Of a stretch of DNA of 24,000 nt, positions 4,310-21,291 are shown piece by piece. Both the position numbers and the translations under genes were made by a program. The first letter of the stretch is position 1, and each line of letters opens with the position of its first letter. Below the pieces are notes generated by a model, which saw only the letters and a list, made by a program, of their open reading frames with translations, was not told where the DNA came from and did not search any database. Origin of the DNA: an uncultured bacterium (lineage in GTDB: Bacteria > Patescibacteriota > Minisyncoccia > Phycocordibacterales > CAJBMK01); assembly GCA_903954165.1 (NCBI GenBank), contig CAJBMK010000052.1, forward strand, positions 11,950 to 35,949. The letters run 5' to 3'.

Positions 4310-4381
4310 CTCCTCGTCGTTCAATGGATAGGACGCAAGATTGCGGATCTTGCAATGTAGGTTCGATTCCTACCGAGGGGA
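4310..4381 (+). tRNA. tRNA-Arg (anticodon GCG), no encoded CCA
   Basis: Hand-folded cloverleaf. Acceptor ctcctcg/cgagggg (one U-G pair). D arm gttc-aatggata-ggac. Anticodon arm caaga-ttGCGga-tcttg. Variable region caat. T arm gtagg-ttcgatt-cctac. Discriminator a at 4381. Confidence 0.85.
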
Positions 4382-4549
4382 CAAAATACAAAAATGACTT
4401 CCATGATTGGAAGTCATTTTTGTATTTTGTCCCCTCGAGCAAGTGCCGGGTGGCACTTGCGGGTAGGAATCGAAGCCCGATTGAGCATTTTATTGAGCGT
4501 CTTCGCGAAAAGAAAATCCAATCGGGGTACTGAACCTGTAAGGTTCGAA
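4382..4549 (+). repeat. tRNA-3'-flank structured element, scaffold type 1, matched to tRNA-Arg(GCG) (copy A1)
   Basis: H1 is a perfect 27-bp hairpin, 4377-4403/4408-4434, extended by cga/tcg. H2 is gcaagtgcc/ggcacttgc at 4439-4447/4452-4460. gtaggaatcgaa (4463-4474) is the reverse complement of the tRNA T-loop and T-stem at 4362-4373. P3 is cccgattg/caatcggg at 4476-4483/4519-4526 and encloses a hairpin tipped gcg-tctt-cgc. The 3' module gtactgaacctgtaaggttcgaa lies at 4527-4549. Confidence 0.7.
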
Positions 4550-4714
4550 TCCCTCAGTGCCCACAACAAAAACGGCTATCGTGCTGTTTTTTTGCGGGCG
4601 CTAGCAAAGCGTCTGCACGCTATGCGCGAGGGATTCGAAAGGGTTCTCCGTTATATCTTAGAAATTCTTATTTCTAAGATATCGGAAACCCGTACTGAAC
4701 CTGTAAGGTTCGAA
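4550..4714 (+). repeat. tRNA-3'-flank structured element, scaffold type 2, matched to tRNA-Val, nested in the tRNA-Arg locus (copy A2)
   Basis: It starts with tccctcagtgcccaca, which is 15/16 identical to the tRNA-Val 3' end at 21041-21056. Anti-Val segments are gggcgct (4596-4602) and gagggattcgaa (4628-4639), split by H2 at 4604-4625. P3 is gggttctccg/cggaaaccc. P4 is the 13-bp hairpin at 4653-4682. It ends with a second copy of gtactgaacctgtaaggttcgaa (4692-4714). The decayed tRNA-Arg tail cttcctaccgac follows at 4715-4726. Confidence 0.7.
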
Positions 4715-4795
4715 CTTCCTACCGACATATTCGGTAATCAATAATGTTATTTTTTTCTCTTCCACCCCTCTGTCAAATTTGTTATTGTTCTCCGT

Positions 4796-11834: not shown

Positions 11835-12016
11835 AGGTGCGCCGATTACATCAATAGGTACTTTTTGATTTTATTTTCGTCTGGGAAGACTCAATAAAAT
11901 AGCGAAAAGTCTTTCGAATCTCACGCGCAAGCAATGCGGGCGGATTGCTTGCTCTCATCCGCCTAAAAAATCAGCACGCGTGGAGTGTGTGATTTTTAAT
12001 AGCGGAGAATGTTGGT
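11835..12016 (-). repeat. tRNA-3'-flank structured element, scaffold type 2, Ser-matched, detached from any tRNA (copy S3)
   Basis: Read on the minus strand: attaaaaatcacacactccacgcgtgctgatttttt (H1), ggcggatgaga, H2 gcaagcaat/attgcttgc, gcgtgagattcgaa, P3 actttt/aaaagt, and P4 attttatt/aataaaat tipped gtct-tccc-agac. About 11912-12010 is a near copy of about 14233-14325. The 3' module is degenerate. Confidence 0.6.
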
Positions 12017-12068: not shown

Positions 12069-14054
12069 TTATTTAAAAATATACTCTCCTTTAAATACTT
12101 CAAACTTCAAAACTTCCTTTTCTTGCATTTCGGTTTCTGCTATTTTTGTTAATTTTATTTTGTACTGTTTGCATATATCTTCTAATAAATCATAATTACC
12201 TAAATCGGTAGAAAATCCAATCAAAATTTCACCATTCTGTTTTAAGTATTTCTTACAATCCTTTAAATATTTTCTTATTGCACGATAACCGGCATCAAAA
12301 AATTGAGCGTCTTCCATTGTTATGTTTGTTCCCGGGTCCATAAAACCAAATGGCATAGCCCAAAAAATCACATCAAATTTTTCTGTTTCCGGTATACCGT
12401 CCAATACATCACCGCTCGTGGCCTTGATTCTATCTTCTACTCCAATTAGCTTTGCGTTGTATAAAGTATTCTCCGGGGCAAATGGATTTATGTCTGTTGC
12501 AAAAATCTCTAAGCCGCTATTTTCTTTTGCAAGATAACAAGAAATAATTCCTGACCCGCATCCAACTTCGCAGAAATATTTCTTATCTTTAATAAGGCCG
12601 TTTACAACTTCTGCATACCACGTTGTTGATGGGAAGTATGATGGATTAAAAACTGCGGGGTGCACAGAATATGTGCTACCAAGAATCGTTGCGTTTACCC
12701 AATCCTCCTTTTTGTTTTGATTTTGGAAGGTTCTTGTTTGTTCTATTCCTGCTTGTATTGGATCATCAAAACGAATTAACTGCGTTAGGTATGTTTTTAT
12801 TTTATCAGTATCAATATCGCCATTTGTTTTTAATTTTGTTTCTGCGTCAATGGAAAAATTAATCTTGAAATATCTTCGTAATTCAAAGTAGTTATTTAAA
12901 TCATCCGGTCCAAATCCCCCAAAAATTGCAATGTCGTTTAGGTCGTATGTTAATAAATTATTTATTTTGCTAATTAAATTTTCTTTGCTTTCCTGAATAC
13001 CTTTTCCTTTGCTATTGTCTAGTAATATAAATGCTTTATTGTCTTTAATTAACGTTCTAAAATTCTCGTCTTCGATTAAATGGATATTTTCATCATCAAG
13101 CGGAATATCCGCCAAAAAGTTCTCAGTAACATACTTTACGAAGCGTAAGTTATCTTCTGTATTAAAATCGTTTGTTTGTAAATACTTTACAAAAGGTAAC
13201 TCATTTTTAATTCTTTCTGTGTCTAGGATTTGATTGTTTGAATAGGTATATGAAAAATGTAAGATAGGAACGAATCCCTCATAAAATTCGCACACCTTAA
13301 AAATATCCTCTACATTTTTAAGTTTTTCTTTATTTTGAAAATCCCTTGAATCAAATTGTACCCCTATACAGATTTTTAATAGGGGATCTTTTTTCTTATT
13401 TTTCAAAAACTCGCCTATTTCTTCGACGGTTTGAGGTTTGTCTGCGTGGAACTGATAGAAATAATAGCTTACTTCTTGGCTGAAAAAATGTTTAAATTTA
13501 GATTTTTTTGTCTCGAAATATTTTTTATTTACATCATTTAATCCCACAATTAAAGACCTTCTTTCAACGATCTCAATTCCAGTCTTTGCAATTTCGGAAA
13601 CTTTCGACGGATTGTTTGTTAAAAGAATTATTTGATTTACACCGAGGTCATTTAAGGCGACTTTGACCATCTCATATGTTCTTTCATCCGGGTTGTGTCC
13701 AAGCATTACGTTTGCCTCAAACGTATCATAACCTTTTGCCTGTAGTTTGTACGCTTTTATTTTTTCATATAGTCCGATACCGCGACCTTCCTGTCTTAAA
13801 TAAATCACACATCCGTTTCCGTTTTTTTGTATTTCAATCAAGGCTGTCTCAAGCTGTTCTCCACAGTCACATTGTAGGCTTTGAAAAACATCTCCCGTCA
13901 TGCATTCACTATGAACTCTGGTTAAAATCGGCTCTTTTGGATTAAGATGCTCGGTATAAACCACAACGGTTTCTTTACCGTGATTTTCCGCATATACGCG
14001 AAAGTTAAATTTTCCTAATTTAGTATTTATAAGTGATTCTGAAAATTTCTTCAT
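12069..14054 (-). CDS. Three-domain fusion: GTP cyclohydrolase II (RibA) + TrpF/PRAI-like TIM-barrel domain + class I SAM-dependent methyltransferase
   Basis: 661-aa ORF. Residues ~1-195 align with RibA along their length: RVHSECMTGDVFQSLQCDCGEQL carries the zinc Cys triad, and RQEGRGIGLYEKIKAYKLQ, GYDTFEAN, DERTY and LLTNNPSKV also match. The middle domain has KICIG, ILLDNSKGKG, IAIFGGFGPDDL and FSIDAETKLKTNGDIDTDKIKTYL. These mirror the PRAI blocks KICG, LLD..GGSG, LSGGL.PENV and VDVSSGVE..G.KD..KI..F. The C-terminus has VGCGSG (motif I), ATDINP, and IFWAMPFG at the position of the NPPY-type motif IV. Confidence 0.8.
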   Translation of the reverse strand: MKKFSESLINTKLGKFNFRVYAENHGKETVVVYTEHLNPKEPILTRVHSECMTGDVFQSLQCDCGEQLETALIEIQKNGNGCVIYLRQEGRGIGLYEKIKAYKLQAKGYDTFEANVMLGHNPDERTYEMVKVALNDLGVNQIILLTNNPSKVSEIAKTGIEIVERRSLIVGLNDVNKKYFETKKSKFKHFFSQEVSYYFYQFHADKPQTVEEIGEFLKNKKKDPLLKICIGVQFDSRDFQNKEKLKNVEDIFKVCEFYEGFVPILHFSYTYSNNQILDTERIKNELPFVKYLQTNDFNTEDNLRFVKYVTENFLADIPLDDENIHLIEDENFRTLIKDNKAFILLDNSKGKGIQESKENLISKINNLLTYDLNDIAIFGGFGPDDLNNYFELRRYFKINFSIDAETKLKTNGDIDTDKIKTYLTQLIRFDDPIQAGIEQTRTFQNQNKKEDWVNATILGSTYSVHPAVFNPSYFPSTTWYAEVVNGLIKDKKYFCEVGCGSGIISCYLAKENSGLEIFATDINPFAPENTLYNAKLIGVEDRIKATSGDVLDGIPETEKFDVIFWAMPFGFMDPGTNITMEDAQFFDAGYRAIRKYLKDCKKYLKQNGEILIGFSTDLGNYDLLEDICKQYKIKLTKIAETEMQEKEVLKFEVFKGEYIFK

Positions 14055-14127: not shown

Positions 14128-14316
14128 TGGTGGAGGAGGTGAGACCGCGAGTACGCTTTTCGAAGCTTACAGCTTCAGTACAGGTTTCCCATTTTTTCAC
14201 GATAGGAATCGCTCAAAAATAGGGGAGAACCTTTTCGAATCTCACGCGCAAGCGAAGCAGTTCGCTTGCTCTCCTCCGTCTAAAAAATCAGCACGCGTAG
14301 GGTGTGCGATTTTAAT
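14128..14316 (-). repeat. tRNA-3'-flank structured element, scaffold type 2, Ser-matched (copy S2)
   Basis: Read on the minus strand: H1 aaaatcgcac...gtgctgatttt, gacggaggaga, H2 gcaagcgaa-ctgc-ttcgcttgc, gcgtgagattcgaa, P3 aaggttctcccc/gggaaacct, P4 attttt/aaaaat, and the module gtactgaagctgtaagcttcgaa. A 14-nt insert follows, then the tail tctcacctcctccacca (plus strand 14128-14144). Confidence 0.7.
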
Positions 14317-14500
14317 TGCGGAGGAGGTGAGACCGCGAGTACGCTTTTCGAACGTTACACGTTCAGTACCCCGATTGGATTTTCTCTGCGTTGGGAAACT
14401 TGAGAAAATGCTCAATCAGGCTTCGAATCTCACCCGGAAGTGCTCCCAGCACTTCCTCTCCTCGCGCCAAATCAAAACCGCCCTGAAAGGCGGTTGGATT
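14317..14500 (-). repeat. tRNA-3'-flank structured element, scaffold type 1, Ser-matched (copy S1)
   Basis: Read on the minus strand directly after the tRNA-Ser CCA: H1 aaccgcc-tttcag-ggcggtt (plus 14476-14495), flanked by ccaaatc/gatttgg. Then ggcgcgaggaga, H2 ggaagtgct/agcacttcc (plus 14436-14456), gggtgagattcgaa, P3 cctgattg/caatcggg, and P4 attttctc/gagaaaat tipped gtt-tccc-aac. The module is gtactgaacgtgtaacgttcgaa. A 14-nt insert follows, then the tail tctcacctcctccgca (plus 14317-14332). Confidence 0.7.
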
Positions 14501-14590
14501 TGGCGGAGGAGGTGAGATTCGAACTCACGACACCTGTAAAGGTGTGACGGTTTTCAAGACCGTTGCTTTAGACCGCTCAGCCACTCCTCC
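14501..14590 (-). tRNA. tRNA-Ser (anticodon UGA), class II with long variable arm, CCA encoded
   Basis: The reverse complement reads ggaggagtggctgagcggtctaaagcaacggtcttgaaaaccgtcacacctttacaggtgtcgtgagttcgaatctcacctcctccgcca. Acceptor ggaggag/ctcctcc. Anticodon arm acggt-ctTGAaa-accgt. Variable arm cacc-tttaca-ggtg. T arm gtgag-ttcgaat-ctcac. Confidence 0.9.
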
Positions 14591-19038: not shown

Positions 19039-19110
19039 GCCCTCATAGCTCAACGGATAGAGCAGCGCTCTTCTAAGGCGTTGATGTAGGTTCGATTCCT
19101 GCTGGGGGCA
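19039..19110 (+). tRNA. tRNA-Arg (anticodon UCU), no encoded CCA
   Basis: Acceptor gccctca/tgggggc. D arm gctc-aacggata-gagc. Anticodon arm gcgct-ctTCTaa-ggcgt. Variable region tgat. T arm gtagg-ttcgatt-cctgc. Discriminator a at 19110. Confidence 0.9.
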
Positions 19111-19280
19111 CAATTAAAAAACCGACGATAAGTCGGTTTTTTAATTGTGCCCCCAGAGAAAGCGCCTGATGGCGCTTTCGCCAGGAATCGAAGCCCGATT
19201 GAGCTTCGTTTTGAGTGTCTTCACGAAAAAACGAACCAATCGGGGTACTGACCGAGTAACGGTCGAACTTCCTGTTGGGT
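19111..19280 (+). repeat. tRNA-3'-flank structured element, scaffold type 1, matched to tRNA-Arg(UCU) (copy B, cleanest prototype)
   Basis: H1 is a perfect 25-bp hairpin at 19102-19126/19132-19156. H2 is gaaagcgcc/ggcgctttc at 19158-19166/19171-19179. caggaatcgaa (19182-19192) is the reverse complement of 19091-19101. P3 is at 19194-19201/19237-19244. P4 is at 19205-19212/19228-19235, tipped gtg-tctt-cac. The module is gtactgaccgagtaacggtcgaa. The decayed tail tcgaacttcctgttgggt lies at 19263-19280. Confidence 0.7.
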
Positions 19281-20980: not shown

Positions 20981-21054
20981 GGGCGCTTAGCTCAGTTGGT
21001 TAGAGCATCTCATTTACACTGAGAGGGTCGGGGGTTCGAATCCCTCAGCGCCCA
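20981..21054 (+). tRNA. tRNA-Val (anticodon UAC), no encoded CCA
   Basis: Acceptor gggcgct/agcgccc. D arm gctc-agttggtta-gagc. Anticodon arm tctca-ttTACac-tgaga. Variable region gggtc. T arm ggggg-ttcgaat-ccctc. Discriminator a at 21054. Confidence 0.9.
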
Positions 21055-21217
21055 CAATAAAAACGGCTATCGTGCCGTTTTTTTGCGGGCGCTAGCAAAG
21101 TGTCTGCACACTTTGCGCGAGGGATTCGAAAGGGTTCTCCGTTATATTTTGGAAATTCCCATTTCCAAAATATCGGAAACCCCTACTGCCGCTGTAAGCG
21201 GAGAATCATTTGTCGGC
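21055..21217 (+). repeat. tRNA-3'-flank structured element, scaffold type 2, matched to tRNA-Val (copy C)
   Basis: H1 is aaaaacggc-tatcgt-gccgttttt (21059-21082). gggcgct (21087-21093) is the reverse complement of the acceptor 3' strand at 21047-21053. H2 is gcaaagtgt-ctgc-acactttgc (21095-21116). gagggattcgaa (21119-21130) is the reverse complement of 21035-21046. P3 is gggttctccg/cggaaaccc. P4 is the 13-bp hairpin at 21144-21173. The module is ctactgccgctgtaagcggagaa. A strongly decayed tail follows. Confidence 0.7.
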
Positions 21218-21254
21218 ATTATTTTCCAGTCCTTTCAAGGACGTCGAAAATATC

Positions 21255-21291
21255 AATTTTGTTGTAATTTTGTTGTAATTTTGTTGTAATT
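21255..21291. repeat. Tandem repeat, 11-nt unit aattttgttgt x 3.4
   Basis: Perfect copies at 21255-21265, 21266-21276 and 21277-21287, plus a partial aatt. Confidence 0.8.

Follow-up and report, generated by a model that had tools for sequence, protein, structure and literature searches.

Folded, gene-less units at the T-loops of tRNA genes in Patescibacteria: candidate mini mobile elements

Each of the four tRNA genes in the window (the whole stretch of 24,000 nucleotides analysed here, from an uncultured bacterium of the Patescibacteriota) bears at its T-loop a strongly folded insert of ~170-190 nt that contains no genes. ARAGORN and Rfam both give these four tRNAs, Arg-GCG, Ser-UGA, Arg-UCU and Val-UAC, and no more. 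The inserts are units of one family, which we give an even chance of being non-autonomous mini mobile elements whose single-stranded form folds, inserts at the T-loop at CGAA|T and uses an enzyme encoded elsewhere. Read in the direction of the tRNA, a unit consists of a replacement tRNA tail beginning at the T-loop, a connector hairpin (terminator-like in most units), an antisense copy of the tail that is mostly interrupted by a further hairpin (H2), the motif TCGAA, an 80-nt core, the motif CGAA and then the displaced original tail of the gene. The features of the prototype, unit B, are as follows.

19039..19110, + strand: tRNA-Arg(UCU) (ARAGORN, Rfam); its final 20 nt (19091-19110, from the T-loop) open unit B
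19091..19267, + strand: unit B; replacement tail, Y-shaped hairpin and core, with TCGAA at the end
19102..19156, + strand: H1 of B, a perfect 25 bp; acceptor 3' strand and trailer against their complement
19158..19179, + strand: H2 of B, 9 bp; arms 19158-19166/19171-19179, GAAAGCGCC / TGAT / GGCGCTTTC
19181-19269, + strand: core of B, 77.6 bits with the covariance model
19182..19192, + strand: antisense T-stem and T-loop of B, CAGGAATCGAA; pairs with 19091-19101
19193..19244, + strand: core hairpin P3/P4 of B, CCCGATTG...CAATCGGG around P4
19245..19267, + strand: right-end module of B; GTAC, stem TGACCG/CGGTCG with loop AGTAA, then AA
19268..19279, + strand: displaced, decayed original tRNA-Arg tail, CTTCCTGTTGGG; extra AC at the junction

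In H1 the arms 19102-19126 and 19132-19156 are exact reverse complements of each other around the loop GATAA, and the interior is terminator-like, having an A-run, a G+C-rich stem (CCGAC/GTCGG) and a T-run. The antisense pieces 19150-19156 and 19182-19192 together form the exact reverse complement of 19091-19108; H2 lies in this antisense arm, one base into the T stem and beside the acceptor/T-stem junction. When 19091-19280 is folded as single-stranded DNA it reaches -74.5 kcal/mol, as compared to -24.6 +/- 3.7 for shuffles (z = -13.7). A sequence-only reading of this DNA had proposed seven copies of such an element; all seven lie at the positions it gave, and its coordinates for B are exact. 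The remaining copies and their surroundings are listed here, with covariance model scores in bits.

4310..4381, + strand: tRNA-Arg(GCG) (ARAGORN, Rfam)
4362..4549, + strand: unit A1, scaffold type 1, 82.9 bits; tail 4362-4381, antisense acceptor 4430-4437, H2 4439-4460, antisense T 4462-4474, right-end module 4527-4549
4550..4714, + strand: unit A2, scaffold type 2, 78.6 bits, inserted at the right junction of A1; tRNA-Val tail 4550-4565, H2 4604-4625, antisense T 4628-4639, right-end module 4692-4714
4715..4726, + strand: displaced original tRNA-Arg(GCG) tail, CTTCCTACCGAC
11836..12011, - strand: unit S3, decayed Ser-type, third scaffold variant, 29.4 bits (E ~1e-4); tail 12011-12001, H2 11952-11927, antisense T 11925-11913, decayed right-end module 11859-11838
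12069..14054, - strand: cargo-like gene of 661 aa between S2 and S3; GTP cyclohydrolase II and methyltransferase domains
14132..14158, - strand: second copy of the 14-nt hairpin AAGCGTACTCGCGG plus Ser tail, 3' of S2
14159..14346, - strand: unit S2, type 2, 71.6 bits; 14-nt hairpin and Ser tail 14346-14320, H2 14269-14248, right-end module 14181-14159
14347..14523, - strand: unit S1, type 1, 80.7 bits; tail 14523-14501, H2 14456-14436, antisense T 14434-14422, right-end module 14369-14347
14501..14590, - strand: tRNA-Ser(UGA), CCA encoded (ARAGORN, Rfam)
20981..21054, + strand: tRNA-Val(UAC) (ARAGORN, Rfam)
21035..21205, + strand: unit C, type 2, 58.7 bits, diverged right-end module CTACTGCCGCTGTAAGCGGAGAA; H2 21095-21116, antisense T 21119-21130
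21206..21218, + strand: displaced tRNA-Val tail, heavily decayed, TCATTTGTCGGCA

The covariance model that the sequence-only reading had suggested as a check was built from 109 cores. A scan of the window with it recovered all seven copies (82.9 to 29.4 bits) and gave no other match. The full-length alignment holds for six of the units; the seventh (~12011-11836, minus strand) is decayed and its scaffold is a third variant, so that the two types originally recognised are not the only ones. In five window copies, both of these types included, TCGAA and GTACTGA are spaced by exactly 52 nt, and across classes the length of the core varies by a few nucleotides only.

Copies elsewhere were sought with a 20-base pattern from the 3' part, run over the contigs of genome assemblies. 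At least 119 stretches matched, where by our estimate ~5 would be expected by chance, and four of those listed look like chance; the genuine copies therefore number at least 115, nearly all from Patescibacteria (CPR) MAGs. A tRNA end on the same strand lies less than 150 nt upstream in 73 of the 123 pattern matches listed. Units are always on the tRNA strand, and the tRNAs that carry them represent 23 anticodons among the matches listed; one unit lies 3' of a tmRNA and two lie 3' of tRNAs containing group I introns. The claim that every intact tRNA gene carries the element holds within the window and fails outside it: in related loci the canonical core is present, patchily, at 91 of 167 tRNAs, a fraction which overstates the true carriage rate because these loci were picked for having at least one copy each. 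A second core family, with the right end ACCGAA, also exists, and the orthologous tRNA-Val in L080, the closest relative among the loci compared, bears a core family different from that of the window. Conversely, the same cores are found with differing tRNA tails, which bears out the earlier observation of one core joined to several tails.

That the structured family is undescribed agrees with every collection searched. In a scan of the whole window against Rfam 15 (E<=1), whose families include hammerhead, twister, tmRNA, HEARO and CPR motifs, the gathering score was reached by the four tRNAs only. On the units, weaker matches to miRNA, sX4, AgrB and plastid models (26-37 bits against cut-offs of 40-100) overlie tRNAs or long H1 hairpins, with none on the 80-nt cores, and no ribozyme was detected in the units by the same scan. 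The exact 20-base core pattern had no match in 2.9 million viral contigs, blastn against phage and plasmid collections gave no match to the unit, and no description of the family was found in the literature searched. A phage-borne attP was rejected on these viral, phage and plasmid results. Two further candidates were discarded: an opposite-strand tRNA or tRNA-like gene, for which ARAGORN and Rfam are negative and the acceptor pairing fails, and a hammerhead reading of CUGA...GAA, in which the G8/A9 positions vary and, by eye, covary.

The junctions carry the signature of insertion. Units are flanked by the T-loop of the intact tRNA, ...TTCGA(A), and by a second ...CGAA. At its left end the unit supplies a fresh copy of the tRNA 3' end that replaces the native one; the tRNA gene thus remains intact while the original end is displaced downstream, where it decays. 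The direct tail noted earlier at the end of the element is thus present, but it is the displaced original gene end rather than a decayed copy: some old tails retain the encoded CCA and the native trailer, both of which are missing from the upstream tail, and old tails are often identical to the tRNA's own tail at 14/14 positions. The junction with the old tail is an exact TCGAA|T in 27 units and has 2 extra nucleotides (AC or AT) in ~25; a 14-nt hairpin lies there in ~6 units, and the old tail is decayed in 17. S1 and S2 are of the hairpin kind, with the 14-nt hairpin AAGCGTACTCGCGG added to their downstream tails. In the A1/A2 pair, whose right-end modules are identical, A1 is followed by a tRNA-Val tail and A2 by the old tRNA-Arg tail, and both antisense tails match the upstream tail and not the downstream one. 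A unit composed of antisense tail, core and downstream tail was rejected, since the downstream tails of A1 and A2 come from other tRNAs.

Tandem units occur in the window and in the loci L028, L096 and L105. Cargo lies between units in L096 and in the window, where the DNA around the 661-aa gene in the S2-S3 interval has ~33% G+C; in L012 it lies upstream of the unit, and in L044 a pair of near-identical units stands on either side of a 5.7-kb defence island. Bigger cargo insertions at the same site have short right ends, for example GGTTCAAAC or GGTTCTAA. Taken together, the tandem arrays, decaying tails, patchiness, module shuffling and cargo argue that the units are inserted DNA and no fixed feature of tRNA genes. 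The displaced tails, arrays and cargo also agree with the DNA-level process that had been proposed. No empty and filled alleles were seen among near-identical strains, contigs from other samples with identical neighbour proteins all show equal spacing and so no sign of recent mobility, and no circular or excised forms were seen.

The Y-shaped hairpin, in which the antisense tail pairs with the unit's own adjacent tail, closes in 76 of 76 units. In it the tRNA gene is reproduced in double-stranded form, beginning at the T-loop and running to the end of the gene, with H2 branching beside the acceptor/T-stem junction; a second hairpin stops 2 nt short of the right junction. In the alignment of cores 93.8% of the cells are paired, compared to 66% in shuffles, and 499 cells are changed on both sides, compared to 165. 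Of 105 related units, 89 have H2; its arms come in 84 distinct sequences, and only 9 of its 757 pairs are G.U. It is clear from the core covariation and the variety of H2 arms that helix positions are kept while sequences change in pairs, as first suggested from the window alone. The foot of the right-end stem covaries in relatives as well, from TGA/TCG to TGG/CCG. Since right ends read TCGAA or CCGAA, and ACCGAA in the second core family, CGAA is the common end motif. This motif mirrors the T-loop.

Wobble pairs indicate which strand folds. The Y-shaped hairpins contain 67 G.U pairs and 11 C.A mismatches (~6:1), and the tRNA-sense strand is therefore the folded strand; in 92 of 105 units, moreover, the sense strand of the core folds more stably than its complement. 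The weak hint of a sense-strand preference in the window is strengthened accordingly. The share of G.U pairs is 4.3% in the core, 2.2% in the Y-shaped hairpin and 1.2% in H2, and it is 4.2% in the tRNA stems of the same loci.

A search for a partner gene was negative. All-against-all clustering of 1009 ORFs from 119 loci gave no recurrent recombinase cluster; Pfam on the 150 ORFs nearest to cores had no recombinase or transposase among the best 25 of 143 families, and Pfam on cargo ORFs found no recombinases. The linked recombinase or nuclease gene envisaged in the sequence-only reading is thus not seen in these ORF clustering and Pfam checks. No Y1 HUH transposase (TnpA) or TnpB was seen in 8-kb genome blocks around units, and no right-end-only motif, as of a full-length element, stands beside ORFs. 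The ORFs near units reflect housekeeping synteny plus accessory genes.

In the explanation that we prefer, the targets would be the T-loops of tRNA and tmRNA genes in Patescibacteria, and the moving form would be a folded single strand, most likely of DNA. The CGAA beside the left end and the CGAA at the right end would act like the TAM and TEM of IS200/IS605, and the hairpins near both ends would serve for recognition. The chemistry would fall to a transposase or recombinase encoded elsewhere, as for the protein-less PATEs, whose mobilisation in trans has been described (PMC10055086); the lack of a partner gene in cis fits such mobilisation. Alternatively, the folded hairpin may be an attachment site for a host recombinase, as used by the CTX phage with XerCD. 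The chemistry of mobility is pure inference, no transposase or recombinase having been identified in the searches. Cores could spread when a unit inserts at the right junction of one already in place, where it does no harm (the case of A2 in A1), and shared modules could then recombine. The antisense tail would match the tRNA because the left-end hairpin must close while its other arm stays a working tRNA tail; hence the antisense tail need not act as a guide. The model does not account for how a fresh tail arises together with its matching antisense copy. As a separate observation, the clean and fast-changing hairpins H1 and H2 hint at a copying process beyond single-strand insertion.

Known systems share parts of this architecture. 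Like the units, PATEs of IS200/IS605 have no protein gene, carry hairpins near both ends and have one functional folded strand; TAM and TEM find counterparts in the T-loop TTCGA(A) at the left and (T/C)CGAA at the right, and mobilisation in trans would be expected of the units too (PMC10055086). The likeness described here is one of architecture. The position of the omega-RNA guide in PATEs is taken in the units by the target's own continuation past the right end. The left hairpin of a unit is, in contrast to PATEs, made of target sequence with a side branch, and the target is one position in functional-RNA genes instead of TTAC-like tetramers. Furthermore, IS200/IS605 make no target duplication, whereas a ~20-nt tRNA tail stands on both sides of a unit; this direct repeat can only fit as a carried replacement end. 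A classical MITE has terminal inverted repeats and a short target-site duplication, whereas the units have no inverted-repeat ends, their boundaries are direct CGAA motifs and their repeat is the 20-nt tRNA tail.

In CTX attP(+), the substrate of XerCD (PMC4246890), and in attC, inverted target-like arms fold into a mimic of the duplex target, as do those of the units in all 76 cases. Both also lack a recombinase of their own and form tandem arrays, and attC further shares hairpin side structures and gene cassettes between sites. Their target, however, is dif or attI rather than the T-loop of a tRNA or tmRNA gene, and the unit hairpin, unlike their arms, is one-sided, reaching from the T-loop to the end of the gene. 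Inspection of the units showed neither dif-like nor R/L-box sequences. IStrons (10.1101/2023.11.20.567912) likewise neutralise the damage of insertion into a gene; they mend the transcript by splicing, whereas the units mend the gene itself with the carried end, with no ribozyme detected.

A less probable alternative, which we hold to be possible but clearly behind an even chance, is that transcription from the tRNA promoter reads through into the unit and yields a functional, structured RNA, comprising the whole unit or at least its antisense tail, H2 and core. Scans of two regions, one around B and one around A1/A2, gave no promoter-like internal site, so any unit RNA would start at the tRNA promoter. 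The RNA could be tRNA-like, with the antisense tail providing the acceptor 5' and T-stem 5' strands and H2 replacing the central arms, or it could be a mobility RNA resembling an omega RNA or bridge RNA, its variable part matching the tRNA tail; neither form is incompatible with mobile DNA. The sense-strand wobble bias and stability favour an RNA, as do the nearly fixed core length, the constant location on the tRNA strand, and the invariant single-stranded GUAC, NGUAA loop (GNRA-like) and purine-rich internal loops of the unit; the G.U share of the core, equal to that of tRNA stems, is compatible with one. PATEs, moreover, often encode omega RNAs that act in trans (PMC10055086). Against it, a run of at least four T, mostly behind a G+C-rich hairpin, lies between the tRNA and the antisense part in 58 of 76 connectors; such T-runs ahead of the antisense arm argue against obligatory co-transcription and favour DNA over an RNA necessarily made by read-through. 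The absence of a linked nuclease or recombinase gene and of an Rfam match, the patchy presence and the tolerance of decayed copies (C, S3) also speak against an RNA.

The comparison with bridge RNAs deserves separate mention. The bridge (seek) RNA of IS110/IS1111 is a conserved scaffold of ~170 nt whose variable, target-matched part is split around a small hairpin. Of its two loops, each carries guides that address the two strands of target and donor. The units resemble it in the ~170-nt conserved scaffold and in the target-matched segment split by a hairpin, but have no adjacent DEDD recombinase gene and no separate donor-binding loop. Their antisense pieces match a single strand, are contiguous once H2 is removed and pair in cis with the unit's own tail in 76 of 76 units, unlike bridge-RNA guides, and the suggestion of guide-RNA or programmable-site logic is not shown; pairing with the own tail is also expected from compensatory upkeep of the end hairpin.

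With a similarly low probability, the units could constitute a new class without a recombinase, in which a single strand of DNA or RNA mimics the acceptor/T-arm and its base-pair match homes to T-loops like an exchangeable guide. The units would then act together like an integron, a platform at tRNA and tmRNA genes for the capture of accessory and defence genes, and matched tails would be regenerated by fold-back or template-switch copying, not by slow compensatory mutation. If the antisense tail does set the target, the unit would be a very small retargetable insertion module; if a host enzyme moves the units, Patescibacteria would possess a recombination pathway so far unrecognised.

It is improbable that the units are fused attL and attR sites of integrase islands or prophages at tRNA T-loops (Ms6-like) whose interior these small genomes have deleted. 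A crossover at the T-loop, an element-borne 3' end and a displaced tail are the textbook signature of such integration (PMC1762012), seen in Ms6 and in tycheposons (10.1101/2020.12.28.424599) as in the units, and the larger cargo insertions with GGTTCAAAC and GGTTCTAA right ends share the site. Use of tmRNA targets, successive insertions at one site and cargo islands in streamlined genomes are common to tRNA-integrating elements and units as well. The units, in contrast, measure 170-190 nt, have no integrase, show compensatory pairing on one strand and contain an inverted copy of the target. More than 100 of them, in different species, have one compact architecture with nothing between the ends, and neither integrase remnants in the ORF checks nor matches in the 2.9 million viral contigs were found. 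The compensatory changes would not be needed by protein-binding duplex arms, and the strand-asymmetric wobble bias speaks against sites that act only as duplex.

A host function, as two-way terminators or insulators or as signals for tRNA 3'-end processing or protection, extended by template switching from a native terminator hairpin, is the least probable reading and very doubtful: the H1 interior does resemble an intrinsic terminator in most units, and perfect long palindromes differ between orthologues (B and L080), as fits correction of near-palindromes by template switching, but the conserved 80-nt core, second CGAA, displaced tails, tandem arrays, foreign tails of A1/A2, cargo between units and absence at many tRNAs are left unexplained.

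Patescibacteria have tiny genomes with few recognisable mobile elements, and their uptake of genes is poorly understood. The unit is a compact and easily searched DNA mark that many tRNA and tmRNA genes of the group carry at their 3' ends, and a covariance model of it is available whichever reading holds. In the preferred reading it would be a parasite housed without harm in an essential gene. The units account for spurious gene calls and contig breaks at tRNA sites, and in some loci defence and metal-resistance genes adjoin them.

ARAGORN and Rfam give the same four tRNA genes in the window. The coordinates given by the sequence-only reading for copy B, the unit behind tRNA-Arg(UCU), are all exact: in the hairpin H1, 19102-19126 and 19132-19156 are perfect reverse complements; 19150-19156 plus 19182-19192 form the perfect reverse complement of the tRNA T-loop, T-stem and acceptor strand (19091-19108); and a 9-bp hairpin, H2, lies between the two antisense pieces. 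As a single strand, the 190 nt of copy B fold at -74.5 kcal/mol, compared to -24.6 +/- 3.7 for shuffled sequence (z = -13.7). Six units of the window align end to end, and there is one more:

Just beyond the 661-aa gene, downstream of tRNA-Ser: seventh unit, S3, decayed

A covariance model, built afterwards from relatives, finds exactly these seven units and no other match in the window, in agreement with the seven copies originally counted; the claim of only two scaffold types fails, as S3 is a third scaffold variant. Two further details are corrected. Behind A1 lies a tRNA-Val tail and behind A2 the old tRNA-Arg tail, placing A2 inside the right junction of A1, and S1 and S2 (behind tRNA-Ser) carry an additional 14-nt hairpin ahead of the tail. 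Five window copies, covering both scaffold types, have exactly 52 nt between the first TCGAA and GTACTGA. A 116-aa ORF crossing A1 and A2 (window 4394-4744, + strand) looks spurious and almost certainly is; gene callers annotate it in two strain contigs, L127 and L128 (113-116 aa, no Pfam match).

Taken along the tRNA strand, the parts of a unit are:

(a) T-loop, 3' strands of T-stem and acceptor, and discriminator, all of the tRNA itself
(b) connector, usually a G+C-rich hairpin between A- and T-runs
(c) antisense of trailer plus acceptor strand
(d) (G)A, H2, GT
(e) complement of the T-stem and T-loop, with TCGAA at its end
(f) long hairpin P3/P4
(g) GTAC, an NGTAA loop closed by a 6-bp stem, and AA
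(h) the old tail

Together, (a) to (e) form one Y-shaped hairpin in 76/76 units with an adjacent tRNA; it amounts to a duplex version of the target, reaching from the T-loop to where the gene ends. H2 branches off beside the acceptor/T-stem junction (in copy B, within the T stem by one base), a place that roughly corresponds to the point of departure of the D and anticodon arms in a real tRNA. The antisense T-loop follows the variants of the T-loop itself (AATCGAA, ATTCGAA, AGTCGAA, GGTTCGAA). A run of at least four T is present in 58 of 76 connectors, and in one subfamily a purine-rich GNGAACGNAGNGA stretch replaces the connector hairpin. H2 typically has 9 bp and a GNAA.../...TTNC start; its 89 examples comprise 84 distinct arm sequences, with G.U at 9 of 757 pairs. 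Both H1 and H2 change sequence fast, yet are almost mismatch-free, for which the fold-back copying or conversion proposed earlier is an attractive explanation.

The proposal of a structured family with paired changes at conserved helices is strongly borne out by the core. Pairing holds in 93.8% of cells, compared to 66.4% when shuffled and at most 54.5% with partners slid, and both-side changes number 499 cells against 165 in shuffles. Such changes occur at 17 of the 20 core pairs, the other three being fixed by the search pattern; in relatives outside that pattern the foot of the last stem covaries as well (TGA/TCG to TGG/CCG). An optional 14-nt mini-hairpin, AAGCGTACTCGCGG, may stand between the right-end TCGAA and the tail, and its 3-bp stem also covaries (GCG/CGC, GTG/CAC, ATG/CAT):

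Window 14333-14346 and 14145-14158 (-): 14-nt mini-hairpin
Among fetched loci L004, L008, L010, L033, L043, L051, L074, L085, L100, L104, L105, L119: 14-nt mini-hairpin

A scan of one genome per species with TCGAA-N50-54-TACTGA-N4-GTAA-N3-TCGAA yielded at least 119 stretches, where about 5 chance matches are expected by our estimate. Four of those listed look like chance matches in coding DNA; the rest come from MAGs labelled Paceibacteria/Parcubacteria, Saccharibacteria, Taylor-, Lloyd-, Kaiser-, Nomura-, Zambryskiibacteria and similar. Among the matches listed, 73 of 123 have a tRNA on the same strand ending less than 150 nt upstream; these represent 23 anticodons, with Ser, Tyr and Leu enriched. 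Several "orphan" matches with no called tRNA are explained by a tmRNA gene, intron-bearing tRNAs or decayed earlier units, and the group I introns listed here are presumably in tRNA genes that ARAGORN misses:

L113 1320-1864 (-): unit directly behind the tmRNA gene
L114 3780-4352 (-) and L041 2335-2777 (-): units downstream of group I introns
L096 3808-3929 (+): LOOT RNA near a unit array

Fusion to every tRNA, as read in the window, is not universal in the family: the canonical core is carried by 91 of 167 tRNAs in the fetched loci, a fraction biased upward by choosing loci that hold one. An encoded CCA is often missing from tRNAs rebuilt by units, which makes it noteworthy that genes for CCA-adding enzymes (PolyA_pol head plus tRNA_NucTran2_2 domains) lie less than 2.5 kb from units in five loci, including L105 5215-6747; this is probably conserved synteny with the tRNA gene.

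An antisense T-arm copy also lies downstream of 24 of 73 tRNAs that lack the canonical core, compared to 0 of 73 control flanks. Many of these 24 have a second core family, TCGAA-AGACG..GAGTC-GGGGTCGAGAG..ACTCGTGACCGAA followed by the tail, in which H2 is often missing and which stands either by itself or in tandem with the canonical one; none was seen in the window. L080 is the closest relative among the loci fetched; its tRNA-Val has this second family, and the window's tRNA-Val has unit C instead.

L080 1350-1480 (-); also L071, L027, L060, L035, L005, L021: second core family

The tail downstream of a unit is the gene's original end, displaced. In 27 units its junction is TCGAA directly followed by T; about 25 have two more bases there (AC or AT), some 6 have the covarying 14-nt hairpin, and in 17 the tail is decayed. 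In several tRNA-Ser loci the old tail has retained its encoded CCA and its native trailer hairpin (..CCAAG..GCTAGCAC..), whereas the upstream tail has neither. Units stand in tandem in the window (A1-A2; S1-S2, with S3 past a cargo gene) and in L028, L096 and L105, and some enclose or accompany cargo:

Window 12069-14054 (-): 661-aa gene with GTP cyclohydrolase II and methyltransferase domains, between S2 and S3
L096: HD-domain gene
L012: copper-ATPase island
L044 1174-7200 (+): 5.7-kb island bracketed by two nearly identical units

The 661-aa gene is placed like a cassette, in a stretch of about 33% G+C compared to about 43% in its flanks; it is present with unchanged spacing in all strain contigs retrieved. 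The L044 island encodes a helix-turn-helix protein, a fused LexA/C5-cytosine methylase and a SMODS+SLATT (CBASS-like) pair, and at its left junction the repeat reaches through the connector. Furthermore, modules recombine between units: A1 and A2 have an identical 23-nt right end on different scaffolds, and two L096 units have tail, H1 and antisense acceptor in common while H2 and core differ. No presence/absence differences were seen among near-identical strains from other samples, whose contigs frequently end inside units, as expected of repeats. Short-read metagenome contigs of this organism (L124, L129, L131 and others) often start or end within about 200 nt of tRNA-linked units, which suggests that the repeats break assemblies there.

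It is the tRNA-sense strand that is selected to fold, as two wobble pairs had weakly hinted. The Y-shaped hairpin has 67 G.U(T) pairs against 11 C.A mismatches, the core is more stable on this strand in 92 of 105 units (G.U 97, compared to 53 on the other strand), and the outer five P3 pairs have 24 G.U against 7 A.C. Since the G.U fraction is 4.3% in the core and 4.2% in tRNA stems, it does not decide between RNA and single-stranded DNA. A functional RNA, a true guide RNA included, would suit the GNRA-like loops and invariant single-stranded purines of the core. Three quarters of units, however, place a terminator-like hairpin and T-run before the antisense arm, and a scan of two regions (B and A1/A2) gave no promoter-like site within them, which argues against an obligatory RNA across both arms; we regard the RNA explanation as unlikely, though deserving of weight. 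A TTGACA-16-AAAAAT match lies just downstream of A2 on the opposite strand, pointing into the units (window 4776-4749, -); it is a consensus match only, with 0.9 expected by chance.

Nothing in cis moves the units: there is no recurrent recombinase among 1009 ORFs, and no recombinase or transposase among the cargo ORFs or the most frequent Pfam families listed for the 150 core-nearest ORFs. The units may instead follow IS200/IS605 logic, in the manner of PATEs, the protein-less derivatives moved as single strands by a transposase encoded elsewhere (PMC10055086): like these, they have a single folded strand, hairpins close to both termini, a motif flanking the left end that recurs at the right, and no gene. 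The conserved motif would be the T-loop TTCGAA, echoed as CGAA. As the target lies within essential genes, survival would be limited to copies that bring a working tRNA tail as their left end; the opposite arm of the left-end hairpin would then have to be antisense tail, giving a guide-like match without guiding. A near relative of this reading would have the folded single strand serve as attachment site for a host recombinase, in the manner of CTX phage, whose site is used by XerCD (PMC4246890), or integron attC; the imitation of a duplex target, tandem arrays and absence of an own enzyme are common to these and the units. Overall, we consider movement as single strands in trans about as probable as all else together.

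Scars of ordinary islands would account for the insertion geometry: a T-loop crossover, a 3' end brought along and use of tmRNA as well, as in integrase elements, of which Ms6 is an example (PMC1762012). We think this origin improbable. Host terminator or insulator structures would suit the connectors, but hardly the displaced gene ends, and are very improbable.

The core pattern has no exact match in 2.9 million viral contigs, blastn gave no hit in the plasmid or phage collections, and the novelty claimed for the family withstood searches of Rfam, element collections and open-access literature, where no description was found. That a mobile element may insert in a tRNA gene and restore its end is already known; what is new is a miniature form without genes, structured as a single strand and with an inverted target copy built in, together with its confinement to Patescibacteria and its arrays, which resemble those of integrons. 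That the mechanism itself is of a new kind we think possible but doubtful. Downstream of unit C, the 11-nt sequence TTTTGTTGTAA occurs in three tandem copies (window 21257-21289, +), and in strain contigs L120 and L121 the surrounding intergenic region is shorter by 9 nt.
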